DNA of 64,000 bases from Thermoanaerobaculia bacterium (lineage in GTDB: Bacteria; Acidobacteriota; Thermoanaerobaculia; UBA5066): positions 160,001-224,000 of the forward strand of contig CAVRAY010000002.1 in NCBI GenBank assembly GCA_963719225.1, read 5' to 3'. Shown here one piece after another: positions 35,764-51,942 of this stretch. Position 1 is the first letter of the stretch. Each line of letters opens with the position of its first letter. The notes beneath the pieces are model-generated. The model was not told the origin of the DNA. It ran no database searches and saw only the letters and a program-made list of their open reading frames with translations. Both the position numbers and the translations under genes were made by a program.

Positions 35764-36765
35764 GTGATGGAGAACAGCTTTCGTCGGCGGCTTGCGCACG
35801 ACACGCCCATCGTTCTCGACGCGGCGATGGGCACGGAACTTTCCCGCCGCGGCGCCGACACGGCACCTCCGCTCTGGAGCGCCCGGGCTCTCGTCGAGGC
35901 CCCGGAGCTCGTGGAAGAGGTCCACCGGGAGAACGTCGCGGCGGGCGCCGAGATCCTCACCATCGCGAGCTTCCGCCTCCACGCGAGGAACATCAGAGAG
36001 AGTTCTTGCTCCCTCTCGCAGGGGGAGCTCATCGCAAGAGCGGTGGCTCTGGCGCATCGGGCAAGGTCCGAATTCTCTTCGAAGGTGAATAGCGAGGCGA
36101 AGCCGGGGCGTCGAGCCGCCTTCTCGAGCGACGCCGCAACTCACCCTTTTGAGAAGGTCTTCAGCAGCGTCTGGATAGCCGGGTCTCTCGCCCCCCTGGA
36201 GGACTGCTACCGGCCCGATCGGGTTCCGAAGCAAGAAAATATTCTCTCTTCCGAACATTCCGAGATGGCGGCGGCTCTCGCCGCCGCGGGCGTCGATCTC
36301 ATCCTCGTCGAGACGATGAACTCGATTCGCGAGCTCGTGGCCGCGACGGCCGCGGCCGTCTCGACGGGTCTTCCCGTCCTCGCATCGATGGTCACCGACG
36401 GGGAGGGGCGGCTCCTGTCGGGAGAACCGATCGGCGACGCGGCGCAGGCGCTTCTCTCGCTTTCGACGAGCCCCGACGCCCTCGGTGTCAATTGCGTCCC
36501 CGCGCGCCGCATCGGCGCCGATCTCGCCCGCCTCGGAGCCGCGGCGCCCGGAGTCCCTCTCGTCACCTACGGCAATGCCGGGCGGGCGCTCGACGAGTCG
36601 CGCGGGCTCTTCACCGAGCCCATCGACCCGTACGAGTACGCCGCTCTCGCGCGCGGCTGGCTCGCGGCGGGCGCCCGAATCGTCGGCGGCTGCTGCGGCA
36701 CGCACGCCGCGCACGTGAGGGCGCTGCGGTCCCTGCTCGACGAGCGGCCGGGCAAAAAGCCCTAG
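35764..36765 (+). CDS. Homocysteine S-methyltransferase family protein
   Basis: LDAAMGTEL, GVNC, GGCCGT. Confidence 0.9.
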   Translation: MMENSFRRRLAHDTPIVLDAAMGTELSRRGADTAPPLWSARALVEAPELVEEVHRENVAAGAEILTIASFRLHARNIRESSCSLSQGELIARAVALAHRARSEFSSKVNSEAKPGRRAAFSSDAATHPFEKVFSSVWIAGSLAPLEDCYRPDRVPKQENILSSEHSEMAAALAAAGVDLILVETMNSIRELVAATAAAVSTGLPVLASMVTDGEGRLLSGEPIGDAAQALLSLSTSPDALGVNCVPARRIGADLARLGAAAPGVPLVTYGNAGRALDESRGLFTEPIDPYEYAALARGWLAAGARIVGGCCGTHAAHVRALRSLLDERPGKKP

Positions 36766-38693
36766 GGGAAGTACCCGCGGATCGTCTTCGCGCGCAGCTT
36801 CGGATTCCTGAGCTTCACCTCGATCGCGCGGAACTGGTTCTCGCCCTTCGAGGAATTCGTGAGATATCGCAGGAAATACTGAGAGCGCAGCTCCGTCTCG
36901 ATCTTCCGGTAGACCTCCGCCAAAGCCGACGCCTTGCCGATGAAGAACGCCTCGGCTCCCGTGTCGACGGCGAGCTCGCTCATCTTCGCCTTGATGCCGA
37001 AATCGAGGACCGAGAGGTTGAGGCCGATGAAGTAGATCGGCACGCCGGCGGAGCGCGCGTAGCGGCGCAGCGTTCCGTAGTCCGTCCAGGAGTGGTTGTC
37101 GTCGCCGTCCGTGAGGACGACGATCGCCTTGCGCCCGGGCAGCGAGCGGAACTGGTAGAGCGCCATCACGACGGCGTCGTAGAGCGCGGTCTCCCCGGAG
37201 GCGCGCGTCTCGGCGATGGCGCGCTCGAGGTCCGTGGACTTGTGCGTGAGGGACGCGAGGAGAGCGGGACGCTCGCGGAACTCGATGACGAAACCCTGGT
37301 CCTTTTCCTTCGAGACCAGCTTCTGCGCGAATTCGGAGGCCGCCTGGTGGACGAGAGGCATGGCGTCCTTCATCGAGCCCGATCCGTCGATCACGATCCC
37401 GAGGGAAAGGGGGAGAGACTCGGCGAACTCGAAGCTGGAGAGGTCCTGCGTCACGCCGTCCTCGAGCACCGTGAACTCCTCGCGCGGGAGGCCCTTCACG
37501 AGGCGGCCGTCGGAGTCGAAGACCGAGACCGGGAGCTCGACGAGGTTCACCTCGACCTTCGTCATGAAGCGCGATTCGCCCTTCAGGAGCTTGAGATCGG
37601 TGAACTCTTTCCCGTCGGCGTCCGTCGCGGTCGCGCGCATGAGCGTGGCCTTCTGGATCTTCGCCACGGGCACGGTGACCGTGAACGGCGGCTCGGTCCA
37701 CTCCTTCAGCATCGTGTCATCCAGCCAGAGCTGAAGCTTCTTCGCGGCGCCGCCCGCGATGGAATGCAGGGCGACTTTCAGCTCCACGGTGTCCCCGGCG
37801 GCCTTCTGTTTCGGCAGCTCGAGGATCCGGACCGCGAGACGCGAGTCCTTCTCGTTGATCGCCCAGGCGTCGGCGTCCACGAAGTTGCCCTGGACGTCGA
37901 AGCCGAGGACCTTGAGCGTCTGCTTCTTGGGGATCTTCCCGAGGTCGAGCTCGACGGTATAGGGTGCGCGGTTCTTCACGAGGATCTTCTTTTCCCCGAG
38001 GTAGAACTCCACGCGCTTGACGGGCTCCTTCACCTCGCACGCGATCCTCAGGAGGCCGACGGGCACCTCCTGCTCCGGCGCCAGGATCTTCACGAAACCC
38101 GAGGCGCCGGCCGCGAGAGGAGGACGGTTCTCGCTCTCGAGGATCACGGCGGCGGCGGTCGGCAGCCCACCGTCCGCCCCGGCGTCCTCGGCACGGAACT
38201 CGGCCGACATGGCGGGCACCATGAGCGAGATCGCGCGCGTGCCCAAGAGCACTCCCGCGACGCCCTCGAGCCGGAACTGGATGTTGACCGTGCCGGGGGC
38301 GAGAGCGCGAAGAAAGGAGATCGCCACGGGCTTCGACGCGTTCGTCACGTCCGTCGACGAAAGGTCGATGTCGACGGGCACCCGGAAGCTCTCGACGGCC
38401 TGACCCTTGTCGTCCGTCACGTCTCCTGCCAGAAAGAACGAATACACGCGCGGCTGCGCGTTTCCCGCCCCGCGGAGATCCCCCCGGCTGACCGAGAGCG
38501 TGAACTTGACGGCCGTCTTCCCCCCGGTTTTCCCGAGATACTGTTCGCGCACGTCGATCGGGATCGAGATCCCCCGTGCCTGGAGCTGGGTCTTCTGGGC
38601 CCCTCCGGGAGGGCCCGATTGGGGCCGCGCAGGAGGAGCCGAGAGGAAGGCGGCGAGGCCGATGAGCGCGAAGGCGCGGACCCGCTTCGTCAT
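36762..38693 (-). CDS. Secreted VWA domain protein with Ig-like domains
   Basis: DGSGSM MIDAS, TALYDA, LTDGDD. Confidence 0.85.
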   Translation of the reverse strand: MTKRVRAFALIGLAAFLSAPPARPQSGPPGGAQKTQLQARGISIPIDVREQYLGKTGGKTAVKFTLSVSRGDLRGAGNAQPRVYSFFLAGDVTDDKGQAVESFRVPVDIDLSSTDVTNASKPVAISFLRALAPGTVNIQFRLEGVAGVLLGTRAISLMVPAMSAEFRAEDAGADGGLPTAAAVILESENRPPLAAGASGFVKILAPEQEVPVGLLRIACEVKEPVKRVEFYLGEKKILVKNRAPYTVELDLGKIPKKQTLKVLGFDVQGNFVDADAWAINEKDSRLAVRILELPKQKAAGDTVELKVALHSIAGGAAKKLQLWLDDTMLKEWTEPPFTVTVPVAKIQKATLMRATATDADGKEFTDLKLLKGESRFMTKVEVNLVELPVSVFDSDGRLVKGLPREEFTVLEDGVTQDLSSFEFAESLPLSLGIVIDGSGSMKDAMPLVHQAASEFAQKLVSKEKDQGFVIEFRERPALLASLTHKSTDLERAIAETRASGETALYDAVVMALYQFRSLPGRKAIVVLTDGDDNHSWTDYGTLRRYARSAGVPIYFIGLNLSVLDFGIKAKMSELAVDTGAEAFFIGKASALAEVYRKIETELRSQYFLRYLTNSSKGENQFRAIEVKLRNPKLRAKTIRGYFP

Positions 38694-38749
38694 GAGGCCA
38701 TCGTATGCTGTCTTTCTCAAGCGACACATCCCCCGTTCAGGAGGTTTAA

Positions 38750-40195
38750 ATGCAAGTTCCCTTCCGCCGCACCGCCGGGGCGCTTCTCGGCCTCGCTCTT
38801 CTTGCGGTTCCGGCCCCGGGAAACGCCGCCTCGCCGGCCGGGGCCGACACGTCAAGCGCCTGGCTGGACTCCACGTCCGCACGCTGGAACGAAATCGCCG
38901 AGAAGATCTGGGGCTTCTCCGAGACGGCGCTCCAGGAGACGAAGTCGTCCGCTCTCCTCGCCGACACTCTCGAAAAGGAAGGCTTCAGCGTGACGCGCGG
39001 CGTCGCGGGAATGCCGACGGCGTTCGTGGCTTCAGCGGGAGCTGGCGCGCCCGTCATCGGGGTCCTCGCCGAGTACGACGCGCTGCCCGGCCTTTCACAG
39101 ACGGCAGGCGCGCCGAAGAAGTCGCCGCTCGCCTCCGCGCCAGCTCCCGGCCACGGGTGCGGTCACAACCTCCTGGGCACGGCGGCAGTCGCGGCCGCCG
39201 TCGCGGCGAACCGCACCCGCGTCGCGGGGAAGCTTCCCGGCACGATCCGCGTCTTCGGCACGCCGGCCGAAGAGCAGCTCCTCGGCAAGCCGTTCATGCT
39301 CAGGGACGGCTCTTTCGCGGGAACCGATGCCGTCCTCGCCTGGCACCCAGCGGACGCGAACTACGTGTGCACGAAGCCTTATCTCGCGATCACCGCACTC
39401 GACGTGGAGTTCTTCGGAAAGACGGCGCATGCCGCGATGAACCCCTGGCTCGGGCGGAGCGCGCTCGACGCCGTCGAGCTGTTCGACCACGCCCTCGCGC
39501 TCATGCGGGAGCACGTGCTCCCGACCGCGCGCCTCCATCGCGCGATCAAGAGTGGCGGCCTCGCGGCGAACATCATCCCGGACTATGCCCGCGTCCAGTG
39601 GTTCGTGCGGGACGAGAACGGAGAACGCGTGAACGAGATGGTCGGGCGCCTGAAGAAGGCAGCCGAGGGCGCGGGTCTCGCGACCGAGACGACGTCGAAG
39701 GTGAGCCTTCTCGCCTCGACGCGCGAGCCGCTCTTCAACGCCGAGCTCTCGAAGGTCCTCCAGAGACATCTCGCCCTCGTCGGGGCGCCGAAGTGGGATG
39801 CCGCCGATGTCGCGCTCGCGCGCGGTGTCCAGAAAGAGGTCGGCATTCCCGAGGCCGGCCTTTCGGACACGGTCCTCCCATATGGTCCCGGGCACGGGTC
39901 CGGGGCTTCGTCGGACGTGGGCGAGGTGAGCGCGGCATTGCCGGTCGCCGAGCTCGCGGTCGCGACGGGGGCCGTGGGCCAGCCGTGGCACCACTGGGCC
40001 GTGACGTCCTGCTCGGGGCACGCGCTCGGCCGAAAGGGCATGCTCGTCGCGGCCAAGGTCCTCGCCGCGACGATGACGGATCTCCTGGGCGATGCCGCGA
40101 CCGTCGCCGCCGCGAAGGCCGAGTTTCAGAAGGCGACCGCCGGCAAGCCCTACGTCAGCCCGCTCGCGAAGGACGCGGTGCCGAAGATCTACTGA
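38750..40195 (+). CDS. M20 amidohydrolase (AbgB-like), exported
   Basis: EYDALPG, GHGCGHN, GTPAEE, SSDVGEVS. Confidence 0.9.
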   Translation: MQVPFRRTAGALLGLALLAVPAPGNAASPAGADTSSAWLDSTSARWNEIAEKIWGFSETALQETKSSALLADTLEKEGFSVTRGVAGMPTAFVASAGAGAPVIGVLAEYDALPGLSQTAGAPKKSPLASAPAPGHGCGHNLLGTAAVAAAVAANRTRVAGKLPGTIRVFGTPAEEQLLGKPFMLRDGSFAGTDAVLAWHPADANYVCTKPYLAITALDVEFFGKTAHAAMNPWLGRSALDAVELFDHALALMREHVLPTARLHRAIKSGGLAANIIPDYARVQWFVRDENGERVNEMVGRLKKAAEGAGLATETTSKVSLLASTREPLFNAELSKVLQRHLALVGAPKWDAADVALARGVQKEVGIPEAGLSDTVLPYGPGHGSGASSDVGEVSAALPVAELAVATGAVGQPWHHWAVTSCSGHALGRKGMLVAAKVLAATMTDLLGDAATVAAAKAEFQKATAGKPYVSPLAKDAVPKIY

Positions 40196-41364
40196 TCGCC
40201 GGGGGCGTCCACCGCGCGAAGCACGCCGTAGTCGACGAGCTTCCGGACGAGCTGCCGTCGCAGGACGAGCCCGTGGTCCTTCTTGATCGCCCTGAGCGCG
40301 TCGGGCACCTTCGAGCCGTCGAAGGCGGGAAGCGCCGGGAGGAGCACGGCGGGGGCATCGATGGGGTCGTAGGCGCTGTAGGTGGCCAGGCGAACGGTCC
40401 CATGTCCGACGCCAATGACGCTGAGGTTGCCGACCTCGAGGCGCTCCGGAAGTGCGTCGCTGGTCACCGCGTCGTAAGCAGCGCGTGCGAGCTGCGCGTG
40501 GAGAGCGACGGTCGCACCTCCGATGCGCTCCACGGCCTTCCACTCCAGGTTCCGGACGATCGCGTCGCATTCGCGGTAGAGCTCCTGCTCGCGTCCGGCC
40601 CAGCTTCCCCAGAGGGACCTGTACCTCTCGGGGCTTACGGTGCCGTCGATCTCGTCGCCCTTGACGGCTTCCGTCCGCCTTTGTGATGGCGGAAGTTTGA
40701 GCGGAAAGTTCACGCGGAGCGCTGCGTGGTCGAAACCGAGGGTGACGAGGCAGTGGATCGCGAGGTTTTCCTCGATGGCCGTCAGCAGCTCCCTGGCCGA
40801 GTCCCAGAACCGCTTCGCCGTGTCCCCGCGCTCGTGCTTGCAGAACCAGGTCATGCAGACGGAATTGCGATGACGCCAGATCCCGCATTCGCCGCCGATC
40901 CGGTCTTCGAGGTAATAGGGGCAGAGCATCGCCTCGCTGTGGCCGAAGACCCCGTCCCCGTGGTCGTACAGGAGGTTGTACGCCCCGCCGGCGCCGACCC
41001 AGAGCGGCGTCACGCCGACTTTCTTTCCGATCCTCTCCACGACGCGGGCCCGCCCTTCGGCCATGTCGGGTGACCCGTCCGCCAGGATCGCCCCGACGAG
41101 AAAGTTGTGAAGCTTCGGCAGGTACGTGCAGCACTTCGTCTTCGGGTTGAAGTAGACCGCGTCACGCTCTCCGTCCGCGCCGCCGGACACGGGCAGCATC
41201 GCGCAGTTCTCGCACGTGGCGTGCGGCTCGGAGGGGATCTTGCCCCCGAGCGCCGCCTCGAGCCAGCGCGCGTGGAGCGGCGCCAGGCCCTTGGCGGGAG
41301 CGTCGGCGATAAAAGGGAGCCGGACCATGGGAGCCCTGGGGCGTGTCACCTGGTCATTGCTCAC
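40189..41364 (-). CDS. Cys-cluster protein, YkgJ/FliB-like (copy 1)
   Basis: CENC...KCC...CPYY...CGIWRHRNSVC..WFC. Confidence 0.7.
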   Translation of the reverse strand: MSNDQVTRPRAPMVRLPFIADAPAKGLAPLHARWLEAALGGKIPSEPHATCENCAMLPVSGGADGERDAVYFNPKTKCCTYLPKLHNFLVGAILADGSPDMAEGRARVVERIGKKVGVTPLWVGAGGAYNLLYDHGDGVFGHSEAMLCPYYLEDRIGGECGIWRHRNSVCMTWFCKHERGDTAKRFWDSARELLTAIEENLAIHCLVTLGFDHAALRVNFPLKLPPSQRRTEAVKGDEIDGTVSPERYRSLWGSWAGREQELYRECDAIVRNLEWKAVERIGGATVALHAQLARAAYDAVTSDALPERLEVGNLSVIGVGHGTVRLATYSAYDPIDAPAVLLPALPAFDGSKVPDALRAIKKDHGLVLRRQLVRKLVDYGVLRAVDAPGDQ

Positions 41365-41372
41365 TAATAGAT

Positions 41373-41522
41373 CTAGGGGGAGGCCTTGTCGATATGCTTG
41401 GGGATCGAAAGATCACCGTGGTCGACCCTCCCCCCGCGGACCTTCCCGCCCTTGGCGGGCTTGACGTCGAGGTTCTTGGCCATTCTCTTTTGAGCCTTAG
41501 GTTTCTCCTTCGCGATTTTCAT
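41373..41522 (-). CDS. Double-glycine precursor L: MKIAKEKPKAQKRMAKNLDVKPAKGGKVRGG|RVDHGDLSIPKHIDKASP
   Basis: AAAGGAG RBS, conserved leader. Confidence 0.85.
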   Translation of the reverse strand: MKIAKEKPKAQKRMAKNLDVKPAKGGKVRGGRVDHGDLSIPKHIDKASP

Positions 41523-41539
41523 GTCTCTACTCCTTTGAA

Positions 41540-41686
41540 TCAAAGCTTCTTGACGCCGCCGCCGGAGCCCCCCGGCAGTTTGTCCATGCCGCCGCGGACC
41601 GCCCCGCCCCTGGACGGCTTGACCTCGAGGTCCTTGACGGTCTTCTTTCGCGAAGCCTTCGGGTTCTTCTTCGCAACCTTCTTCAT
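41540..41686 (-). CDS. Double-glycine precursor K: MKKVAKKNPKASRKKTVKDLEVKPSRGGAVRGG|MDKLPGGSGGGVKKL
   Basis: AAAGGAG RBS, conserved leader; manual translation. Confidence 0.8.
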   Translation of the reverse strand: MKKVAKKNPKASRKKTVKDLEVKPSRGGAVRGGMDKLPGGSGGGVKKL

Positions 41687-41910
41687 GTCCTCGCTCCTTT
41701 CTTCCTGTGTCGGTCGTGGCCTGGCTTCGGCCTTCGCTCGGCCGGAGCATCCTTGAACGGCGGCTCTTCCTCTGTCTTGGGGATCGGGGGACGTTCACCA
41801 AAGACCGTCTTCTGTGCAGCGCCCCCCTTGGGGTCGTTTCGGGGGACGAGGTCCCTGAGGGGTACGAACCCCGGCGACGGCTCCTTCCTGCGGCGCCTTG
41901 GCTTCGTCAT
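41683..41910 (-). CDS. Second-type small protein J (75 aa), motif LRDLVPRNDPKGG|AAQKTVFGE
   Basis: Paralog of 44170-44394; stop overlaps the next ATG. Confidence 0.65.
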   Translation of the reverse strand: MTKPRRRRKEPSPGFVPLRDLVPRNDPKGGAAQKTVFGERPPIPKTEEEPPFKDAPAERRPKPGHDRHRKKGART

Positions 41911-41917
41911 GCCGGCT

Positions 41918-41988
41918 TCGATGTCGACGGGCACGCGGAAGCTCTCGACGGCCTGGCCGCGGTCATCCGCGCCCGAAAGGAAGAACGA
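41918..41988. repeat. Fragment homologous to the VWA gene segment 38365-38441
   Basis: 37/38 identical nt at 41918-41955 vs 38365-38402; both encode GQAVESFRVPVDI on the minus strand. Confidence 0.85.
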
Positions 41989-42106
41989 TTTGGGTTTGGC
42001 CGTAGCCCCCACGGACTGTCCCGCCCTTCGCGGGCTTGACCCCGAGGTTCTTCGTCGCCTTGGTAGTCCTTGACTTGGAGGCCGTCTCCCTCGGGGTCTT
42101 TTTCAT
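41963..42106 (-). CDS. Double-glycine precursor I: MKKTPRETASKSRTTKATKNLGVKPAKGGTVRGG|YGQTQIVLPFGRG
   Basis: AAAGGAG RBS, conserved leader; manual translation. Confidence 0.8.
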   Translation of the reverse strand: MKKTPRETASKSRTTKATKNLGVKPAKGGTVRGGYGQTQIVLPFGRG

Positions 42107-42160
42107 GTCGTTTCTCCTTTCTTCCTTTTTCGGCCGTGAACGGGCTCGAGGGACGGTCGA

Positions 42161-42289
42161 CTATTTGGGCCAGTATCTCCCCCCCAGGCCTCCGCGGACG
42201 GTCCCGCCCTTGGCGGGCTTGACCTCGAGGTTCTTGGCCGCCTTCTTCTGAGAAGCCTTCGTGGCGCTTTTCTTCGTGGTCTTCTTCAT
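42161..42289 (-). CDS. Double-glycine precursor H: MKKTTKKSATKASQKKAAKNLEVKPAKGGTVRGG|LGGRYWPK
   Basis: AAAGGAG RBS, conserved leader; manual translation. Confidence 0.8.
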   Translation of the reverse strand: MKKTTKKSATKASQKKAAKNLEVKPAKGGTVRGGLGGRYWPK

Positions 42290-42377
42290 GTCGTCTCTCC
42301 TTTCTTCCTGTTTCGCTCGTGACCCTGTTTCGAGTGCTTGACGAGCATCCCATGTCGGAGGTGCATCATCTCGGGAT

Positions 42378-42554
42378 TCACTTGACCTTCGTGTTTATCG
42401 ACGCTGCAAGACTCGTGCGAACCCCGAGAGCTTGGAGCTCCACAGCGGTGGGACCTCCGCGAACATCGCCGCTCTTGTCGCGCCTGACCTCGAGATCCTT
42501 GACCGCCTTCCTGTGTGTACCCTTCCCTTCGCCTTTCTTCGTGGTCTTCATCAT
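42378..42554 (-). CDS. Double-glycine precursor G: MMKTTKKGEGKGTHRKAVKDLEVRRDKSGDVRGG|PTAVELQALGVRTSLAASINTKVK
   Basis: AGAGGAG RBS, conserved leader; manual translation. Confidence 0.8.
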   Translation of the reverse strand: MMKTTKKGEGKGTHRKAVKDLEVRRDKSGDVRGGPTAVELQALGVRTSLAASINTKVK

Positions 42555-42617
42555 GTCGTTTCTCCTCTTTTCCTGTTCCAGTCGTGACCCGGCTTCTGCC
42601 TTCTCATCGAGTTCTGG

Positions 42618-43796
42618 TTAGACGTGCTCGTCTTCGGGGGCGTCCACCGCGCGAAGAACGCCGTAGTCGACGAGCTTTCGGACGAGCTCGAGGCTCAGGA
42701 CGAGCCCGTGGTCCTTCTCGATCGCCCGAAGGGCGTCACGCACCTTCGAGCCGTCGAAGGCGGGAAGCGCCGGGAGGAGCGCGGCGGGCGCATCGGTCGG
42801 GTCGTAGGCGCTGTACGTGGCCAGGCGCACGGTCCCATGCCCGACGCCGATGACGTTGAGGTTGCCGATCTCGAGGCGCTCCGGAAGAGCGGAACTCGTC
42901 ACCGCCCGGTACGCGGCGCGTGCGAGCTGCGTGAGGAGAGCGACGGTCGCGCCGCCGATCCTCTCGACGTCCTTCCACTCCATGTCCCGGACGATCCCGT
43001 CGCTTTGGAGGTAGAGCTCCTTCTCGCGTCCGGCCCAGCTTCCCCAGAGGGCCTTGTACCTCTCGGGGCTCACCGTGCCGTCGAGCTCGTCCCCCTTCAC
43101 GGTTTCCGTCCGCTGAGACTTCGGAACCTTGAACGGGAAATTGGTCCGGAGCGCCGCGTCGTCGAAACCGAGGGTGACGAGGCAGTGGATCGCGAGGTTC
43201 TCCTCGACGGCCATCAGCAGCTCGTTGGCCGAGTCCCAGAACCGCTTCGCCGTGGCCCCTCGCTCGTGCTTGCAGAACCAGGTCATGCAGATGGAATTGC
43301 GGTGACGCCAGATCCCGCAGCCGCCGCCCATCCGGTCTTCGAGGTAGTAGGGGCAGCGCATCGCCTCGCTGTGGCCGAAGACCCCGTCACCGTGGTCGTA
43401 CATGAGGCCGTACGCTCCGCCGGCGCCAACGGAGAGCGGCGTCACGCCGACCTTTCTTCCGATCCTCTCCAGAACGCGCGCCTGTCCTTCGGCCATGTCG
43501 GGCGCCTCGTCTGCGAGGATCGCGCCGACGAGAAAGTTGTGAAGTCTCGGCAGGTAGGTGCAGCACTTCGTCTTGGGATTGAAGAAGACCGCGTCCCGGG
43601 CCCCGTCCGCGCCGCCGGGCACCGGGAGCATGACGCAGCTCTCGCATGTGGCGTGGGGCTCGGAGGGGATTTTTCCTCCGAGAGCCGCTTCGAGCCAGCG
43701 CGCATGGAGCGGCGCCAGGTCCTTGGCGGCAGCGCTGGCGATGAAAGGGAGCCGGACCATGGGAGCCCTGGGGCGTGTCACCTGCTCATTGCTCAC
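42618..43796 (-). CDS. Cys-cluster protein, YkgJ/FliB-like (copy 2)
   Basis: Close paralog of 40189-41364 with the same Cys pattern. Confidence 0.7.
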   Translation of the reverse strand: MSNEQVTRPRAPMVRLPFIASAAAKDLAPLHARWLEAALGGKIPSEPHATCESCVMLPVPGGADGARDAVFFNPKTKCCTYLPRLHNFLVGAILADEAPDMAEGQARVLERIGRKVGVTPLSVGAGGAYGLMYDHGDGVFGHSEAMRCPYYLEDRMGGGCGIWRHRNSICMTWFCKHERGATAKRFWDSANELLMAVEENLAIHCLVTLGFDDAALRTNFPFKVPKSQRTETVKGDELDGTVSPERYKALWGSWAGREKELYLQSDGIVRDMEWKDVERIGGATVALLTQLARAAYRAVTSSALPERLEIGNLNVIGVGHGTVRLATYSAYDPTDAPAALLPALPAFDGSKVRDALRAIEKDHGLVLSLELVRKLVDYGVLRAVDAPEDEHV

Positions 43797-43804
43797 TAAT
43801 AGAT

Positions 43805-43942
43805 CTAGGGGGAGGCCTTGTCGATATGCTTCGTGATGAGAAGGTCGCCTCCGCGAACCGCTCCGCCCTTGCCTGGCTTGACGTCGAGGTCCTTGGCCGC
43901 CTTCTTGGCCTTCGAGGGGGTCTTTTTAGTGGTCTTCTTCAT
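43805..43942 (-). CDS. Double-glycine precursor F: MKKTTKKTPSKAKKAAKDLDVKPGKGGAVRGG|DLLITKHIDKASP
   Basis: AAGGAG RBS, conserved leader. Confidence 0.85.
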   Translation of the reverse strand: MKKTTKKTPSKAKKAAKDLDVKPGKGGAVRGGDLLITKHIDKASP

Positions 43943-43993
43943 GTCGTTTCTCCTTCCTTCCTGTTTCAGTCGTGACCCGAACATGAAACGCAA

Positions 43994-44173
43994 TTAGTGT
44001 TTCCGCCATACCTCAATGACCACTTCCTTAATGTGCTCTCCCTTGATGGGAATGATGTCTCCGAGGCCATGCCCTCCACGGACCGTCCCACCCTTGGCGG
44101 GCTTGACGTCGAGGTTCTTCAGTGCCCTCTTGCGCGAGGCCTTCGCGGCGCTTTTCTTCGTGGTCTTTTTCAT
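43994..44173 (-). CDS. Double-glycine precursor E: MKKTTKKSAAKASRKRALKNLDVKPAKGGTVRGG|HGLGDIIPIKGEHIKEVVIEVWRKH
   Basis: AAAGGAG RBS, conserved leader; manual translation. Confidence 0.8.
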   Translation of the reverse strand: MKKTTKKSAAKASRKRALKNLDVKPAKGGTVRGGHGLGDIIPIKGEHIKEVVIEVWRKH

Positions 44174-44394
44174 ATCGGTTCTCCTTTCTTCCTGCTTCGG
44201 TCGTGACCCGGCTTCTGCCTTCGTTCCGCCGGAACATCTTTAAGGGGGTGGTTATCTTCTGTCTCGAGGATCTGGGGACGTTCGCCGAAGACCGTCTTCC
44301 CCGCCGACCCCCCCTTGGGGTCGTTTCGGGGGACGAGGTCCCTGAGGGCGACGAACCCGGGCGGCGTCTTCGTCTTGCGGCGGCCCTTCTTCAT
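44170..44394 (-). CDS. Second-type small protein D (74 aa), motif LRDLVPRNDPKGG|SAGKTVFGE
   Basis: TGATG coupling with the GT41 stop; paralog of 41683-41910. Confidence 0.65.
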   Translation of the reverse strand: MKKGRRKTKTPPGFVALRDLVPRNDPKGGSAGKTVFGERPQILETEDNHPLKDVPAERRQKPGHDRSRKKGEPI

Positions 44395-45896
44395 CACGCC
44401 GCCACCGGTGCGGGAAAGCAACCGCGTTCCTCGCCGCTGCCTCGCGCCTCCGAGCGAGATCGCGCGCGCCAGAGCTGGAAATAGACATCCTCGATGCAGC
44501 GCGCGAGCCTCGCGCAGTCGGTGACGGGCGAGGCCTTCAGGCGCTTCCTCATCGTGCGCCGTAGCTCTTCGCGTCTTTCCGCTTTTGCCGCCGATCCCCA
44601 TCGAATGGCCGTCTCGACGTACCCGCGCACGTCCCGGCTGACGAACTTCCCGAGACCGGCGTTTTCCAGCAGCGACGCGCTGGTACGCGAGATCCACCGA
44701 TCCCCCGAGAACGCGACGACCGGAACGCCCTGCCAGATGGCTTCCGTGGTCGTCGTGCCCCCGTTGTACGGGAACGTGTCGAGGGCGAGGTCGATGGCGT
44801 CGTAGTTTCGGAGGAAGTCGTAGTGCTCCGCAGGTCCGAGCATCGCCACGCGCTCGGGCTCGATGCCGCGCCGCGTGAATCGCGCGAGTGTGTGCTTGCG
44901 ATTGCCGGGGTCTCCCAGAGCGGCGTTGGCCAGGAGAAAGCGGCTTCCGGGGCATCGCCTCAGGATCTCGGCCCACGCGGCGACGACGCCGTCGTTGAGC
45001 TTGTAGAGCGACGAGAGACTGCCGAACGTGACGAAGCCGTTCTTGAGCGACGGCGGTGGCGCGACATCGGGGACCGGGTAATTCACCGCGAACGTCAGAG
45101 ACGAGAGCGGGAGCTCGACGACCTGCTCTCCATACCAGTGCTTCTCGCCGTCACGAATGAGCCAACGATCGCCGATCAGCGCATCGAACACGGGCAACCC
45201 GGAGGTTCCGAAGATGTTGAACCACGCCACGACGACTGGAGCCAGCCTCGTCGCGAACAGCGGCAGCCGGCCCACCCGACTGTACTGGTTGAGATCCACG
45301 AGAACGTCGAGCCCCGCCCGGGCGATCCGGCACGCGGCCGCGCCGTTGTCGAGGCGCGAGATGTCGTGGACGTGCGCCCCGCTCGTACGCGCCCGGCGGC
45401 GCACGGCGGAAGGGCGCGACGCGTCGGAAAAAAGGTGGACCTCCACCCTGCCGGGGTCGTGGTGATCGATCAGCCCCCACACCGGCTTCATCCAGTTGTC
45501 TGCGTGGAAAAACGACGAGACGTAGCCGATCTTTAGTACTTTCCTGACCGGGCTGCCGACGACGATCGCCCTGGCGGGCGCGACGGCTCGGGCGCGAACC
45601 GCGTCGCCCAGCGCGCGGCGGACCTTCAGGATCGCCGCGTGGTCCAGGCGCGGGTCGAACGGGGCGATCGTCGCGAGGAGCCGCTGGGCTCGGATGTCCG
45701 TACGAATCCGGAGAGACGCCCGAAGATGCCGGGTCGCCCTCTCGACCTCACCGAGCGCGAAGGTCGCCCGGGCGAGGTAATAACGTGCGGCCGCAGAATC
45801 CGGACTCGCCCGGACGGCCGATTCGAAGACAGCGAGGCCGCTCGCGTACTTGCCGGCCGCGAGCATGCGACGGCCATTCGGGCAGCCGGCGATCAT
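44394..45896 (-). CDS. TPR-containing GT41 (O-GlcNAc transferase/SPINDLY-like) glycosyltransferase
   Basis: KIGYVS, DVLVDL, RLAPV, VTFGS, LDTFPYNGGTTTTEAIWQGVPVV; TGATG coupling to precursor C. Confidence 0.85.
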   Translation of the reverse strand: MIAGCPNGRRMLAAGKYASGLAVFESAVRASPDSAAARYYLARATFALGEVERATRHLRASLRIRTDIRAQRLLATIAPFDPRLDHAAILKVRRALGDAVRARAVAPARAIVVGSPVRKVLKIGYVSSFFHADNWMKPVWGLIDHHDPGRVEVHLFSDASRPSAVRRRARTSGAHVHDISRLDNGAAACRIARAGLDVLVDLNQYSRVGRLPLFATRLAPVVVAWFNIFGTSGLPVFDALIGDRWLIRDGEKHWYGEQVVELPLSSLTFAVNYPVPDVAPPPSLKNGFVTFGSLSSLYKLNDGVVAAWAEILRRCPGSRFLLANAALGDPGNRKHTLARFTRRGIEPERVAMLGPAEHYDFLRNYDAIDLALDTFPYNGGTTTTEAIWQGVPVVAFSGDRWISRTSASLLENAGLGKFVSRDVRGYVETAIRWGSAAKAERREELRRTMRKRLKASPVTDCARLARCIEDVYFQLWRARSRSEARGSGEERGCFPAPVAA

Positions 45897-46069
45897 CAGG
45901 ACTTGAGCCGCGTGTCGTGACTCCACTGAGTGCTTTGAATTTCGATCCAATCCGTGTGTCGCACCTCTCCACCACGGACCGTCGCGCCCTTGGCGGGCTT
46001 GACCCGGAGGTTTCGGACGGGCTTCTTGTGAGCGGCCTTCGGCGCGGTTCTCTTGGTTGTTTTCTTCAT
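45896..46069 (-). CDS. Double-glycine precursor C: MKKTTKRTAPKAAHKKPVRNLRVKPAKGATVRGG|EVRHTDWIEIQSTQWSHDTRLKS
   Basis: Purine-rich RBS, conserved leader; manual translation. Confidence 0.8.
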   Translation of the reverse strand: MKKTTKRTAPKAAHKKPVRNLRVKPAKGATVRGGEVRHTDWIEIQSTQWSHDTRLKS

Positions 46070-46129
46070 GACGTTCTTCCTTTCTCGAGCGGACTCTCAC
46101 TATGTCGACGGACCTCTTCATGCCCTGCT

Positions 46130-46254
46130 TCATTCCTGGATCTTGGTTATCGGCTTTTTCCCCCCGCGGACGGTCCCGCCCTAGGCGGGCTGACCTCGAG
46201 GTTTCGGACGGCTTTCTTTGCCTTCGACGCGCTTTTCTTCGTGGTCTTGTTCAC
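46130..46254 (-). pseudogene. Inactivated precursor B (restored core KKPITKIQE)
   Basis: 1-nt deletion (GTC AG CCC) plus AAG>TAG relative to sibling leaders. Confidence 0.7.
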
Positions 46255-46261
46255 GTCGTCC

Positions 46262-46399
46262 TCATTTCGGCCGCCTATCTGGGGGACCGGGGGGGAATCC
46301 TCCGCGGACCGACCCGCCCATGACGGGCTTGACCTCGAGGTCCTTGACCGCTTTCTTGTTAGATGCCTTCGAGGGGTTCTTCTTCGCAGTCTTCTTCAT
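46262..46399 (-). CDS. Double-glycine precursor A: MKKTAKKNPSKASNKKAVKDLEVKPVMGGSVRGG|FPPGPPDRRPK
   Basis: AAAGGAG RBS; first gene after the sigma54 promoter; manual translation. Confidence 0.8.
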   Translation of the reverse strand: MKKTAKKNPSKASNKKAVKDLEVKPVMGGSVRGGFPPGPPDRRPK

Positions 46400-46440
46400 C
46401 TCTGTTCTCCTTTCTCGCGGTTTGTGACGGGCCCGAGCGA

Positions 46441-46456
46441 AGCAAGGGCCATTCCA
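46441..46456 (-). promoter_or_regulatory. sigma54 (-24/-12) promoter of the precursor array
   Basis: TGGAATGGCCCTTGCT = GG-N10-GC, ~40 nt upstream of precursor A and beside a sigma54 activator gene. Confidence 0.75.
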
Positions 46457-46591
46457 TCACTGAGAAGCAGTCGCAGGCGCGCGATGGCGGCGCATTTCAG
46501 GGCTCGACTGTCTCGTTTCAATGCGATGTCGCATCGTTTCGAGTGACCCGTTCCGAGTCGCCTCGTCGCGCTCGCTGCCGCTCGTGCCCGG

Positions 46592-47566
46592 TCACTTCGT
46601 GTCGCTGAGCTTCCTCTCGAGTCGGGCGCGGGAGATGCCGAGGGCCCGGGCTGCTCTCGTCTTGTTGCCGGAGAGCTCCCGGAGGACCCGGCGGATGTGG
46701 TTCTGCTCGACGGTTCGGAGACTCAGGTCGGTTGCGGGTGCCGGCCGCGCGGCGGAAGGCGGCGCTCCGGAGACGCCGTCGTTTTGGATCGGGACTGAGA
46801 GTTCCTCGATCACGCTGCCCTCGGTCATCGCAATGGCGGCGTGAATGACGAGGTCGAGCTCGCGCAGGTTCCCGGGCCAGTGGTACGAGAAGAGAGCATC
46901 CGCGGCCTTCTGTGAGAGGCCGGAGATGGCCCGTCCCTGCGCATGGGCGGCGCGGCGGATCGAGGCCGCGACGAGCTCGCGCAGGTCGTTCGGCCTCTCG
47001 CGCAGCGGGGGAAGGGTGACCGTGAGCCCCGCGAGCCTGTAGAAGAGGTCGCTCCGGAACTGCTCGGTGTTCGCGAACCGCGCGAGGGCGTGGCGCGTGG
47101 CCGAGATCAGCCGCACGTCCGCCGTGCGCAGGCGCTCGGAGCCGAGCCTCTCGAATTCGCCGTATTCGACCGCCCTGAGGATCTTCGCCTGGGCGAGCGG
47201 GCTCATGTCGGCGATCTCGTCGATGAAGAGGGTGCCGCCGTCGGCGATCTCGAACTTGCCGCGCACCTGCCGCTTCGCGTCCGTGAACGCGCCTTTCTCG
47301 TGGCCGAAGAGCTGGCTGTCGAGGAGCGTGTCGGAGAGGGCGGCGGCGTTGAAAGAGACGAAGGGGGCCGACGCCCTGAGAGAGGAGTTGTGGATGGCCT
47401 GGGCGAGGAGCGTCTTGCCGGTGCCTGACTCGCCGAGGAGGAGGAGCGGAAGCTCGGTCCGGCAGGCGGCGCGCGCCACGTCGAGGCACCGCCGCATCGC
47501 GGCGTCGGCTGTTCGGAAGCTCTCGAGCGTGAGGCGTGCCGCGTCGGGGAAGCTCTCCCGGGTCAC
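46592..47566 (-). CDS. sigma54-dependent activator (AAA+ and Fis HTH) lacking an N-terminal sensory domain
   Basis: GESGTGKT, LFGHEKGAFTDA, FIDEIAD, FRSDLFYRL, WPGNLREL, GNKTRAARALGISR. Confidence 0.92.
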   Translation of the reverse strand: MTRESFPDAARLTLESFRTADAAMRRCLDVARAACRTELPLLLLGESGTGKTLLAQAIHNSSLRASAPFVSFNAAALSDTLLDSQLFGHEKGAFTDAKRQVRGKFEIADGGTLFIDEIADMSPLAQAKILRAVEYGEFERLGSERLRTADVRLISATRHALARFANTEQFRSDLFYRLAGLTVTLPPLRERPNDLRELVAASIRRAAHAQGRAISGLSQKAADALFSYHWPGNLRELDLVIHAAIAMTEGSVIEELSVPIQNDGVSGAPPSAARPAPATDLSLRTVEQNHIRRVLRELSGNKTRAARALGISRARLERKLSDTK

Positions 47567-48765
47567 CGGATGTTCTCCCTCAGCTGCCGGAGCGGCTCGA
47601 AAGCGTACTCGACGAGAGTCCGACGGCCGACGACGATCCGCGCCATCCCGCGCATTCCCGCGAGGAGCGGTTTGCGCTCTCCGTCCGCCGCGACGGTTTG
47701 CTCGTCCAGGTCGACGAGGACGGGAAATGTCGCCGTCTCGCGGATCCCGACGCCGGAGGGGCTGGCCCACCGGACTGTCCCTCCGCGGACGCCATAGCGC
47801 TGGTACGGGAACGCCTCGAGGAGGAGACGAACGTTCTGGCCGGGGCGAATCCGGGCGAGGCCGCCCTGCGGAAGTGCCAGCTCGGCCTGAAGAGTTTCGG
47901 CGGAGCACGCGACCTCCGCGAGGACGTCGCCGTCACGGACCACAGCTCCTGCCCGCCTCGCCGTGACCCCGAGAACCGTGCCGTCGCAGGGAGAGTTGAC
48001 GGCCAGCTCGTTTCCAAGCCCGTCTCCGCCTGCGGAGGGCGCCTCGCCGCTGAGCGCCCCGATCCTGATTCTCGCCTGCGCGATCTTCTCTGCGAGGACC
48101 CGCTCCTCCTCGTGGAATTCCATCCCTTTGGCCGCCTCGGTGTCGCGGAGCTTTTCGATGGCGCTTCCGGTCGCGCCCCGCTCGGCCTGGAGCTGCTCGA
48201 GCTCCATCACGGCCTGGCTGTGCCGGATCTGGGCGTCGGAGCGCTCGTTCAGGCTCGCGAGCCCCTGGTCGGCGAGCTTCTTCGCGCGCTCGGACTGCTC
48301 CTTCGTCAGGACGAGCTGCTCCCTTTTCAGGGCCAGCATCCGATCGAGATAATCCGCGCGATCGGCGAGGCTCCGGGCCTCCTCGCGCCTCGCGCTCGCC
48401 TCGCTTTCGAATCTCCTCCGGGCATTGGAAAGGCTCTCGGCAAGGCCGCCGAGACCGGCTTCGAGCGCCTTCCGCTCGGACGCCCGGTCGGCGAATTCCT
48501 GTGACCGGATGGCGAAGAGCCTCGCCCCCCTGAGCACCGGGCGCCCCTCGACGGCGAGCACGTCCGTGACGGTTCCCCCGCGCGGAGCGCGGACCGGGTC
48601 GGTGCCGCGCACCGGCACCAGCGCGAACGGGGCAACGACCGTCTCCGGGACCTTGACGGCCACCGAGACGATCGCCGCGGCCACGAAGAGAGCGATCAGG
48701 ATCCAGGCGAGGCTCCGCGCGGCGAACGGCGGCGGGTCGCTCGGGAGAAACGGCGTCTCGTCCAT
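47563..48765 (-). CDS. HlyD family secretion membrane fusion protein
   Basis: Single transmembrane segment, long coiled coil, AFPYQRYG, LLAGM, YAFEPL. Confidence 0.92.
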   Translation of the reverse strand: MDETPFLPSDPPPFAARSLAWILIALFVAAAIVSVAVKVPETVVAPFALVPVRGTDPVRAPRGGTVTDVLAVEGRPVLRGARLFAIRSQEFADRASERKALEAGLGGLAESLSNARRRFESEASARREEARSLADRADYLDRMLALKREQLVLTKEQSERAKKLADQGLASLNERSDAQIRHSQAVMELEQLQAERGATGSAIEKLRDTEAAKGMEFHEEERVLAEKIAQARIRIGALSGEAPSAGGDGLGNELAVNSPCDGTVLGVTARRAGAVVRDGDVLAEVACSAETLQAELALPQGGLARIRPGQNVRLLLEAFPYQRYGVRGGTVRWASPSGVGIRETATFPVLVDLDEQTVAADGERKPLLAGMRGMARIVVGRRTLVEYAFEPLRQLRENIR

Positions 48766-51700
48766 CTAGATCCCCAGCTGCTGGCTCGAGAGGTAGTAGT
48801 AGAGGCCCTGGCGGTCCATCAGCTCGTCGTGGATCCCCTGCTCGACCAGACGCCCCTTCTCCAGCACGAGGATGACGTCCGCGTCGCGGATGGTGCTGAG
48901 CCGGTGCGCGATCACGAATGACGTCCGGCCTTCCAGAAGGCGGTCGAGGTTCTCCTTGACCGCCCGTTCCGACTCGCTGTCCAGTGAGCTGGTCGCTTCG
49001 TCGAAGATCAGCACCGGGGGCCGGTTGTAGATGGCACGCGCGATGGCGATGCGCTGCTTCTGTCCGCCGGAAAGAGCGAGGCCCGACTCGCCGACCCGGG
49101 TGTCGTAGCCCAGGGGAAACCTCTCCACGAACTCGTGGGCGCTCGCGACGCGGGCAGCCCAGAGAACCCGGTCCATGTCGGGCTCGGCGTCGCCGAAGGC
49201 GATGTTCCGCGCGATCGTCTCGTCGAAGAGGTAGTTCTCCTGGAGGACGAAGCCGACGCGCCGCCGGAGGTCCCTGTAGTTCAGCTTTTCGAGGTCCACT
49301 CCGTCGAAGAGGATCGATCCCTCGGTCGCCTCCAGGAGGCCGGAGAGGAGCTTGGCGAGCGTCGTCTTGCCGGAGCCGCTTCGGCCGACGACCGCCACCA
49401 TCTTTCCGGGCTCCACGTCGAAGGTGAGACCCTCGAGGATCTTCGGCGACTCGGGCCCGCCGTACTGGAAGCCGACGTTCCTGAGCGAGACCTTTCCCGC
49501 GAGCGTTCGGACCGGAATGAGCGCGGACCGGTCGTCGCCCTGCTCGGGGGTCTGCTCGAAGACGTCGTTCAGGCGGTCGAGGAGGACCGTGCCGTACTGG
49601 AGGTGGTCCCAGGTCGCGAGCAGGATCCCGATCGGCGCGTTCGCGAGGGCCACGAGCGCGTTGAACGCGACTAGCCCGCCGATGGTGAGCGACCCGCGCA
49701 TCACCTGGAGCGCGCCCGCCCACAGAAAGAGGGCGACCGAGAGGAAGCTCACGGCCTGGACGGCGCCCTCGTAGGTCATCACGGTGAAGTCGGCGCGAAA
49801 CTGCTTGCGGGCGAGGCCGAGGAACCGTTCCAGCATCAGCTGCCTGAGTGAGCCTTCGGCTCCGAGCGACTTGACGGTCTCGATCCCCTTGATGGTGTCG
49901 ATCTGATGGGCCGAATACTTTCCGAACGCCTCCTCGAGCGTGTCGAAGACGGGACGGAGCTTCCGCCGCGAATACCTCATCAGGAGGGCGTAGAGGGGAA
50001 CGGTCGCGAGGAAGACTCCCGCGAGGAGGGGGCTGTAGACGAACATCAGGACCACGACTGCGGCGAGCTGGGAGAGGGCGGTCAGGGAGGAGACCCCGTA
50101 CTGGACCAGGAGCTCGCGCACCTGACGGAGGCCCATGAGACGGCGCTGGATGTCCCCCGTCTTCCGCGTCGAGAAGTAGGACATCGGAAGCGACAGGAGG
50201 CGCCGGGTGATGAAGTCGAGCGTCGCGGCGTCGATCCGGACTGCGGCGAAGCTCAACAGGTATCGCTGCAGCACCATCGCCAGGGTCGAGAAAACGAGGA
50301 CGCCTCCCATCCCGAGGAGAAGAATCCGGAGCAACCCCTCGTCGCGCTCGACGAGAACCCGGTCGACGATCACCTGGCTGAAGACCGGCAGCACCATCTG
50401 CAGGATGCTGACGATCAACGCCAGAGCGGCCGCCTTCGCGAGGAGAGCGGCGTGCGGCCGAAAGAAGCGGGTGAGCCACGCGAAGCTCGAGCGTCCCACC
50501 GGAGCCTTCTCGAACGCTTCCGTGTAGTCGAAGAGGGCAGCGTAACCCGTCCACTCCTTCTCGACCTCTGCGCGCGGCAGGAGCCGGAGCCCGACCCCAG
50601 GGTCGGCCAGGCGAACGTCCGCCGGGTTCGTGTCGTAAAGGACGACCCAGTGGTTGCCGCCCCAGTGAAGGATGGCGGGGAGCGGCATCTGGTCCAGGTG
50701 CCGCGCCGAGGCCTTGACGGAGCGCGCGGCGAGTCCCAGCTCCTCGGCTCCGCGGCAGATCGCCCGGAGGCTCGTGCCGTCGGTCGATGTGAAGAGGAGC
50801 TGCCGGATCCGCGCCAGGCTCACCGCGCGGCCGAAGTGGCGACAGACCATCGCCAGGGAAGCCGCGCCGCAGTCCATCTCGTCGATCTGCCGGATGAAGC
50901 GGAAACGGCGGATCCGCCGAGCCTTCTTGGTGAACCGACCGTCCTCCGTCGCGAAGGGAGCGGCGGGCTCCTCGCCCGCTGCTTCGTCCGCCCGGCCGCC
51001 GGCATCCTCGTCGACTTGGTCCGGACCCACCTCCTCCACCGCCGCCTCCGCGGGCAGGAGCTCGTCGGCGAAGTCGAGCGGAACCGTCGCCTCCTTTCGG
51101 TAGTCGTACTGGGCGATACGCCGGCCGATGGCCGCGCGGAACCCGGGATGCGCCTCGGTGACGGCCCGGAAGGCGGTCGGGTGCAGGCTCAGGAGCCGAC
51201 AGGGCGTGACGGCCTCGACTGTGGCCTTTCTCGGTTCTCCCGTGAACGCCGAGATCTCGCCGAAGACATCGCCTTTCCGGAGGTAGGCGATGTTTCGCAG
51301 GTGCCCGTCCTCCTCGGCGAAGGCGCGAAGCCTTCCTTCCTCGACGACGAAAAGAGGTCCTTCCCCGTCTCCCTGTCGGAACACGGTCTCCCCTGCGGCG
51401 ACGGCGATCGTCTCGAACCGGTGGAGGAGCCCGGCGAGGACCGCTGGCGGAAGCGTGGAGAACGGGGTGTAGAGACGGAAGAGGTTCTGGAGGCTCCGGT
51501 ACCGGCTGTGGAGCTCCAGGCAGGTCCGGATCTCGGGATCGCCGGAGAGAAGCTCGTCGAAGGCGCTTCGGTCGAGCCGGAGGACCGTCGCGGCGCTCGA
51601 CGCGCGCACCGTGGCCTGCCGCCTGGCGGAGTCGTCCAGGAGACCCATTTCGCCGAAGCTGTCCCCGGGACGAAGCACGCCGAGCGAAACCTCCTCGCCC

Positions 51701-51942
51701 CGCTCTCCCATCTTCACCGCACGGGCTTTCCCGGCCACGAGGACGAAGAAGGCGTCCGCGGGATCGCCCTCGCGAAGGATGACGGCGCCGAAGGGAAAGG
51801 AGACGGGGACGAACTTCCCGGTCACCGCGGCGCGAGACGCAGGCGAGAGGAACTTCAGGAGCGGCAGGTCGTCGAGGAGGGCCCGCGCCGCCTCCACCTC
51901 CGGCGGGAGGGACGACTTCGCCTTGCTCTTCAAGGCTTCCAT
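48766..51942 (-). CDS. Peptidase-containing ABC transporter (2x cNMP, C39 peptidase, TMD, ATPase)
   Basis: GDSFGEMG and GDVFGEIS cNMP motifs, QIDEMDCGAASL, HWVVLYD, GRSGSGKT, LSGGQKQR, DEATSSLD. Confidence 0.95.
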   Translation of the reverse strand: MEALKSKAKSSLPPEVEAARALLDDLPLLKFLSPASRAAVTGKFVPVSFPFGAVILREGDPADAFFVLVAGKARAVKMGERGEEVSLGVLRPGDSFGEMGLLDDSARRQATVRASSAATVLRLDRSAFDELLSGDPEIRTCLELHSRYRSLQNLFRLYTPFSTLPPAVLAGLLHRFETIAVAAGETVFRQGDGEGPLFVVEEGRLRAFAEEDGHLRNIAYLRKGDVFGEISAFTGEPRKATVEAVTPCRLLSLHPTAFRAVTEAHPGFRAAIGRRIAQYDYRKEATVPLDFADELLPAEAAVEEVGPDQVDEDAGGRADEAAGEEPAAPFATEDGRFTKKARRIRRFRFIRQIDEMDCGAASLAMVCRHFGRAVSLARIRQLLFTSTDGTSLRAICRGAEELGLAARSVKASARHLDQMPLPAILHWGGNHWVVLYDTNPADVRLADPGVGLRLLPRAEVEKEWTGYAALFDYTEAFEKAPVGRSSFAWLTRFFRPHAALLAKAAALALIVSILQMVLPVFSQVIVDRVLVERDEGLLRILLLGMGGVLVFSTLAMVLQRYLLSFAAVRIDAATLDFITRRLLSLPMSYFSTRKTGDIQRRLMGLRQVRELLVQYGVSSLTALSQLAAVVVLMFVYSPLLAGVFLATVPLYALLMRYSRRKLRPVFDTLEEAFGKYSAHQIDTIKGIETVKSLGAEGSLRQLMLERFLGLARKQFRADFTVMTYEGAVQAVSFLSVALFLWAGALQVMRGSLTIGGLVAFNALVALANAPIGILLATWDHLQYGTVLLDRLNDVFEQTPEQGDDRSALIPVRTLAGKVSLRNVGFQYGGPESPKILEGLTFDVEPGKMVAVVGRSGSGKTTLAKLLSGLLEATEGSILFDGVDLEKLNYRDLRRRVGFVLQENYLFDETIARNIAFGDAEPDMDRVLWAARVASAHEFVERFPLGYDTRVGESGLALSGGQKQRIAIARAIYNRPPVLIFDEATSSLDSESERAVKENLDRLLEGRTSFVIAHRLSTIRDADVILVLEKGRLVEQGIHDELMDRQGLYYYLSSQQLGI

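Follow-up and report, generated by a model that had tools for sequence, protein, structure and literature searches.

A diverged piece of a VWA gene inside a peptide precursor array of a Thermoanaerobaculia bacterium, probably a repair patch

The window, that is, the whole stretch of DNA analysed here, comprises 64,000 nucleotides (positions 160,001 to 224,000 of contig CAVRAY010000002.1, below called C2, of a Thermoanaerobaculia bacterium). Positions are those of the window unless a contig or a locus is named, and the genome itself is referred to as G000. A cluster of genes with an array of small peptide precursors lies on the minus strand between the M20 and Dus genes, and a VWA gene lies nearby. 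The main features of this neighbourhood are the following.

36762..38882, minus strand: VWA gene, listed as an intact ORF of 706 aa
38365..38441, minus strand: donor-type segment within this resident VWA gene, 77 nt
40190..53086, minus strand: peptide cluster, 12.9 kb, bounded by the stop codons of M20 and Dus
40189-41364 and 42618-43796: Cys-rich proteins of 391/392 aa, 85% identical, with several CxxC and CC motifs
44394-46133: TPR-GT41 glycosyltransferase
46592-47908: sigma-54 activator
47563-48765: HlyD (HlyD_3)
48766-51948: C39-peptidase ABC exporter (Peptidase_C39 114.6 bits, ABC_membrane, ABC_tran and two cNMP_binding domains)
within the cluster: PPIase-like gene

The array consists of small genes on the minus strand, with a Lys-rich leader ending in KGGTVRGG and cores that are unrelated to each other. 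Ten such precursors (type 1) were found in the window, nine of them ending in RGG and one in AGG, and fifteen in the C6 locus of the related genome G017, where 14 follow the VRGG pattern and one has IRGG. The type-1 leader is conserved among the paralogues and the homology stops at GG. Both cNMP-binding domains of the exporter are N-terminal. The Cys-rich proteins have no match in Pfam or NCBIfam, and nothing usable was obtained from Pfam at E up to 10; their homologues occur in 8 of the 41 genomes searched, G000 counted, and a role as modifying enzymes of the system is presumed for them. Each of their genes is directly preceded by a precursor whose ending is always of the DK(A/S)SP type.

The gene order Dus-M20-VWA-HMT-SDR is retained in all three relatives compared (G017, G011, G003), where Dus and M20 are 10 to about 600 bases apart. 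None of the three has the cluster, an extra VWA gene or a VWA pseudogene there. The distance between M20 and Dus in G000 is 12.9 kb, and the arrays of G017 are situated on other contigs. Gene order marks the 12.9-kb cluster as a lineage-specific insertion next to the VWA gene, and neither an integrase nor a target duplication was seen with it. A paralogous copy of the region from the Dus-like gene to the VWA gene is present on the same contig (C2:616000-622900), and the contamination estimate of 6.2% for this genome may be due in part to this copy.

The part of the array considered here contains one type-1 precursor, named precursor I, and the small gene that follows it. The latter belongs to another family, type 2. 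The relevant features, all on the minus strand, are:

41963..42106: precursor I, 47 aa, leader MKKTPRETASKSRTTKATKNLGVKPAKGGTVRGG, predicted core YGQTQIVLPFGRG
41989..42004: core stretch between leader and tract, 16 nt, encoding YGQTQ and the first base of an Ile codon
41918..41988: VWA-derived tract, 71 nt, equivalent to VWA codons about 148-172, with a 6-nt deletion between 41969 and 41970
41963..41965: stop codon TGA of precursor I, the T at 41965 being a change private to the tract
41911..41962: spacer from the stop of precursor I to the next start codon, 52 nt, 45 of them VWA-derived
41683..41910: type-2 small gene, 75 aa (MTKPRRRRKEPSPGFVPLRDLVPRNDPKGGAAQKTVFGERPP...), its stop overlapping the ATG of the next precursor (ATGA)
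44170..44397: second type-2 copy of the window, without a VWA tract upstream

Precursor I is preceded by a strong Shine-Dalgarno box, GGAAGAAAGGAG, like its neighbours, and it is homologous to the other precursors precisely as far as the GG codons (42005). Its context is that of a double-glycine leader peptide with a C39-peptidase ABC exporter and an HlyD partner nearby; cleavage after GG and export of the core are predicted. Among the leaders of the array this one deviates most: it reads NLGV where eight of the nine other type-1 leaders of G000 have D or E (NLEV, DLEV and similar), and PRET where others have TKKS. No orthologue of the core was found in G017 or in the locus recovered from public metagenomes (L037). 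The 16 nt immediately behind the leader have a weak, unproven likeness to the end of the core of neighbour J (TAC..GGCC..CAAAT).

The tract starts 16 nt past the leader, at 41988, and ends 7 nt before the ATG of the type-2 gene (41910). Read one base off the VWA frame, it encodes the last eight residues of precursor I, IVLPFGRG, followed by TGA; the initial annotation, which had a fragment of a VWA gene supply the last codons and the stop out of frame about 16 nt after the GG codons, was accurate in this respect. The stop codon depends on the private T at 41965. The tract has GAT at this site. The resident gene and seven of the nine aligned orthologues have GAC, and AAC or AGC occurs in three further orthologues. 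Without the T, the frame of precursor I would stay open for 55 further codons, across the next gene.

The similarity to the VWA gene consists of two parts. Positions 41918-41955 are identical to 38365-38402 (minus strand) at 37 of 38 nucleotides. A blastn-short search of the whole genome (2 contigs, 4,750,048 bases) with window positions 41880-42030 yields this locus (C2:198365-198402, i.e. window 38365-38402) at E 2.4e-12 as the sole non-self match with E < 0.002. Thus there is a single donor-type locus and the tract is otherwise unique. Ordinary blastn lengthens the match to 46/52. The second part, 41956-41988 against 38403-38441 with the 6-nt gap, has a global alignment score of 9, equalled in 1 of 20,000 shuffles and in 1 of 20,000 random genomic 33-mers; here the orthologues of other species are more similar to the tract than the resident VWA gene is. 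Both the 37/38 match and the weaker similarity reaching about 41988 had been noticed in the initial annotation and are confirmed by these searches, and the translated match, SFFLSGADDRGQAVESFRVPVDI against SFFLAGDVTDDKGQAVESFRVPVDI, is exactly as it was described there.

Both junctions of the tract are new: the alignment breaks on either side, and neither flank runs on into sequence that flanks the segment in the VWA gene. No other pieces of the VWA-M20 region were found in the array. The tract and the resident segment have the same strand and are 3.5 kb apart. Eight records from four sequencing runs of one study (word shares 0.10-0.17) contain no read or contig spanning 41925-42097. One 151-nt record from run X1 equals 41774-41924 without a difference and extends 7 nt into the tract, which does not make it a bridge. 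Public metagenome contigs searched with a 36-nt junction pattern gave no matches.

The type-2 gene downstream of the tract is a member of a family with the pattern M..PGFVPLRDLVPRNDPKGG|SAGKTVFGERPP..., which has a leader-like KGG motif, a conserved 'core' and no Shine-Dalgarno box; no match to it was found in Pfam or NCBIfam. G000 and G017 together have ten copies, seven of which are intact ORFs; of the others, one is frameshifted with a 94-aa tail, one has a frameshift and one an in-frame TGA. Besides the two genes of the window, members of this family (74-75 aa) are situated at positions 12251-12475, 13831-14055, 15712-15936 and 16274-16498 of locus L013. The stop codon of the gene overlaps the ATG of the type-1 precursor that follows (ATGA), and the conservation of the family begins at its own ATG.

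An ORF with a GTG start at 42012 (41683-42012) fuses the VWA piece in frame to the type-2 gene. It was rejected as a gene, since the conservation of ten copies starts at ATG 41910 and no other copy is so extended. A search of public metagenomes with the 109-aa ORF yielded one locus (L037), with a distant type-2 gene and without the VWA part. A translated likeness to the VWA gene runs on past the tract into the type-2 gene (51 aa, 53%). It was judged to be coincidental, because that part is conserved in copies without the VWA tract. A structured RNA was also considered for the type-2 element and was rejected for the first 42 codons: in codons 12-42 (PGFVPLRDLVPRNDPKGGSAGKTVFGERP) the variable sites are distributed 8/5/18 by codon position, which is a coding pattern.

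The resident VWA gene scores as a full member of its family. It matches TIGR03436 (acidobact_VWFA) with 176 bits, the cut-off being 81.25, at residues 442-705, and the Pfam VWA model with 48 bits. The source of the tract is the N-terminal part, residues about 148-172, outside the modelled TIGR03436 domain. A DNA query with 41683-42106 in 29 genomes of the genus matched the tract part in 15 other genomes. Ten of these loci and that of G017 were taken for comparison and the remaining four were left out. All eleven are VWA orthologues, with flanks that still align with the VWA gene. A VWA paralogue of the same genome (C2:620843-622864, 71% identical at the protein level) contains the same segment in a diverged form; it was tried as the donor and rejected at 41/69 matches to the tract. 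On the other hand, no VWA match was found in the arrays of G017, which are the closest relatives of this array (enzymes 81-90% identical). As the segment is present in eleven orthologues and the paralogue and absent from the G017 arrays, it is native to the VWA gene and foreign to the array. On this comparison of sequences, the VWA gene is the donor and not the recipient. A decayed VWA paralogue standing at the position of the array is not supported either, given that the G017 arrays lack a VWA match and three of three relatives lack an extra VWA gene. The initial annotation had named relatives with a full VWA gene here, showing simple decay, as a ground against its reading; none of the three has a VWA copy at the site, and the reading is not refuted in this way.

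The age of the tract was considered from the following comparisons.

tract and the resident VWA gene of G000: 58/69 matches
tract and the orthologues of G003 and G041: 62/69 matches each
tract and the orthologue of G017: 61/69 matches
tract and the paralogue at C2:620843: 41/69 matches

A maximum-likelihood tree of VWA genes, to which the tract was added as a short row, places it within the clade of G017, G003, G041, G011 and G000 (UFboot 99). Its position there is not beside G000 and is next to G003 with UFboot 69. The tract differs from the resident gene at 11 of the 69 positions; counted in the VWA frame, eight of these differences are at third codon positions. The resident gene has private states in five codons of the segment. 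They probably arose there after copying, and none of them is found in the tract. The private changes of the tract are 2-4 substitutions and the 6-nt deletion. They are all in its 5' 31 nt, and the 3' 38 nt have none. At one site the tract has GGC, whereas G000 and the sister genome G011 both have GGA. This agrees slightly better with a donor allele different from the resident one, as far as four sites and UFboot 69 can indicate.

Divergence at 4-fold sites between the VWA gene of G000 and the clade is 0.25-0.31, from which about nine changes are expected in a neutral relic of such age. The private changes of the tract fall short of what full neutrality since the species splits would give, and it may therefore be somewhat younger than these splits or partly constrained. 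The 37/38 identity is no sign of recency, because the stretch is nearly invariant in all VWA orthologues. To judge from the alignments, the tract is not a fresh copy and is moderately old.

The tract, then, is a copy, since diverged, of an internal stretch of the VWA gene. We consider it probable, at roughly 0.6, that it was placed in the array as a one-off patch of templated or end-joining repair and is now a relic. The cluster of 12.9 kb would first have settled beside M20 and VWA in this lineage; a break would then have occurred in the variable part of the peptide array. Its repair would have pasted in 71-77 bases of VWA from 3.5 kb away, on the same strand, either by a template switch during replication or repair or as filler DNA in end joining. 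The tract replaces the earlier sequence from 16 nt past the leader of precursor I to 7 nt before the next start codon. Later on, the private C-to-T change at 41965 created the stop of precursor I; the resident VWA gene would meanwhile have changed at five codons, and the tract would have gained its 2-4 substitutions and the 6-nt deletion. The placement of the event in this lineage after the arrival of the cluster, as well as the repair mechanism, is what we infer from the junctions and from the gene order of relatives. End joining is available to this organism, as two Ku-domain genes above the Pfam cut-off are present in the genome.

Templated ('filler DNA') insertions at repaired breaks arise by microhomology-mediated template switching or by Ku/LigD end joining. 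The tract resembles such insertions in being short, in having a nearby intact donor on the same strand and two new junctions without long homology, and in the presence of Ku genes; it differs in that the mechanism is a proposed one here. The alternative raised in the initial annotation, a scar of a local duplication-deletion, fares less well. It would require two independent deletions, since both junctions are new and there is no other VWA-M20 remnant, and a single templated patch is simpler. Relics of genes left by duplication and deletion are likewise short, diverged pieces, non-functional in appearance and away from home. However, the tract has no collinear flank and no other VWA-M20 remnant, and relatives have no VWA copy at the site.

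The tract seems to have no function of its own beyond incidental coding and spacing. No RNA structure was found in it (fold z-score -0.12), and no promoter- or terminator-like site was found on its strand. Its effects are positional: precursor I ends in a new tail and the type-2 gene is preceded by a spacer, and the donor ORF of the VWA gene is left intact.

Four other explanations were weighed against a relic of repair. An artefact of assembly or a chimera is highly improbable. It would agree with the lack of a read or contig of the four runs across 41925-42097 and with the contamination estimate of 6.2%. However, a chimera would fuse large blocks and reproduce its source without change, and an insert of 71 nt is not of this kind; the tract differs from the only possible source within the assembly at 11 of 69 positions and by the 6-nt deletion. 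The 151-nt record from X1 agrees with the assembly up to 41924, without bridging the tract. We are also very doubtful, though less so, of an earlier acquisition, in which the tract originated in another host with a VWA gene like that of G003 or G041 and was imported with a mobile cluster. The tract is indeed closer to these two orthologues than to the resident gene and groups weakly with G003 in the tree; moreover, the sites of the cluster differ between G000 and G017, and the cluster is present in 5 of the 24 genomes of the genus searched with the enzyme. Yet this support amounts to four sites, no array was found in G003, G041 or G011, and the imported cluster would have had to settle, by coincidence, 1.3 kb away from the orthologue of its scrap's source gene, a target of about 10 kb in 4.75 Mb.

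A patch of the same origin could have made a working new peptide, so that precursor I is translated, cut after GG and exported as YGQTQIVLPFGRG, with the tract and the stop-creating change kept by selection. The intact leader, the strong Shine-Dalgarno box like those of the neighbours and the C39-peptidase exporter in the same cluster are compatible with this, and so is the private C-to-T change, which trims a run-on of 55 codons overlapping the next gene. The private changes in the tract are also fewer than in a neutral relic of its apparent age. Nevertheless we consider selection for the peptide unlikely: the leader of precursor I is the most deviant one, no orthologue of its core was found in G017 or the metagenome locus, and the unchanged part of the tract is mostly in the spacer, outside the ORF. 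More far-reaching, and somewhat less likely again, is the suggestion that the region behind the leaders is a capture site, where fragments of the genome's own genes are regularly inserted, and that this is how the cores, Hcp-like and otherwise, were formed. The single true case lies exactly at the boundary of leader and core, the leaders are conserved and the cores mutually unrelated, and several cores do resemble pieces of Hcp.

Many cores resemble strands of Hcp, the tube protein of the T6SS, with motifs such as ..DLxIxKxIDKASP, ..KGWIEVSSFSF.. and ..IKGEH... They were found at these places:

41373-41522, 43805-43942, 43994-44173 and 45896-46069: Hcp-like cores in the window
10517-10702 and 14052-14240 of locus L013: Hcp-like cores
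locus L037: Hcp-like cores

The core of precursor A matches PF05638 with 24.0 bits, just above the cut-off of 23.5, and that of precursor L with 17.6 bits. The match covers profile positions 36-76 of 129 only, and thus these are pieces and not full Hcp domains. PF05638 finds four hcp loci in the genome, but none of these loci matches the Hcp-like cores in DNA or protein, and the core peptides of G000 have no other match in the genome beyond low-complexity ones at E 0.005 or worse. The Hcp-like cores are common to paralogues, to G017 and to the metagenome locus, and hence are inherited and not freshly captured; this fits descent from an old fusion of a leader with Hcp. Apart from the VWA tract, 2,578 nt of the G000 array have no match outside the array, and no foreign gene pieces were found in 7,247 nt of the G017 arrays. 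The matches of the latter are other array copies, an outlying precursor, a GT41 paralogue (by query coordinates) or a 1.3-kb element. This IS-like element, with at least 8 copies of 99-100% identity across G017, is inserted in a precursor array (L035 about 3665-4977, G017:C28). Its location shows that the arrays are break-prone, which also agrees with a capture site. On the other hand, the arrays of the two genomes, about 9.8 kb of DNA, contain no foreign piece other than the VWA tract, which is out of frame and only partly within an ORF, as expected of an accident.

The initial annotation had taken the tract as direct evidence that pieces of other genes end up behind the leader and as support for a capture origin of the Hcp-like cores. 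The former holds for one VWA piece, which forms part of a core out of frame. The latter is not borne out, in view of the single case in the array DNA, the lack of hcp matches and the inheritance of the cores. The VWA tract shows that foreign DNA can become core sequence; a general mechanism of capture is not supported. A bolder form of the capture idea would see a hotspot behind the constant leader, where tracts of host genes are read in any frame and new exported peptides are minted, the VWA tract being the first one caught with a recognisable donor. There is perhaps a small chance that this is so.

Arrays of comparable organization are known. Haft et al. 2010 (PMC2887384) describe a hypervariable region after Gly-Gly in the Nif11/NHLP families, and leaders derived from pieces of other genes, namely nitrile hydratase alpha and Nif11. 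Laurenceau et al. (bioRxiv 10.1101/2020.03.09.984088) state of the diversification of prochlorosins that the events behind it are unknown. Like the arrays in these accounts, the present one has many small paralogous genes, conservation up to Gly-Gly, hypervariable cores and a peptidase-ABC exporter. However, its leaders match no NCBIfam or Pfam model: five type-1 precursors and the 109-aa ORF gave no match with E <= 0.01, the NHLP and Nif11 models TIGR03793 and TIGR03798 included. There is also no lanthionine or cyclodehydratase enzyme here, and Cys-rich 391-aa proteins of no known family are present instead. Moreover, in the Nif11/NHLP case as described by Haft et al. it is the leader that derives from another gene, whereas here it is part of one core. 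The situation is partly reminiscent of overprinting, as eight residues and the stop of precursor I come from VWA-derived DNA shifted by one base, but the DNA is a displaced copy and not the functioning gene itself, and any use of the product is hypothetical. We found no literature on this acidobacterial array or on gene-fragment capture or patches in precursor cores.

How hypervariable cores come about behind constant leaders is a general question for peptide arrays, and the prochlorosin preprint cited above calls the molecular events unknown. With the VWA tract there is a clean and dated case: the end of a core was replaced by non-homologous DNA, whose donor is known, and a new tail resulted, read out of frame. 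Such events can therefore happen; a single one in the 9.8 kb or so of array DNA of the two genomes does not show them to be the rule. It also calls for caution with short matches, as the 37/38 match seemed recent only because this stretch of VWA hardly varies among species.

Finally, the true start of the resident VWA gene is probably further in than that of the listed ORF, at the signal-peptide-like sequence MTKRVRAF. The translation ERGMCRLRKTAYDG (about 38690-38740, minus strand) is identical upstream of both VWA paralogues, before the signal-peptide-like start, and may represent a conserved 5' leader or a longer N-terminus.
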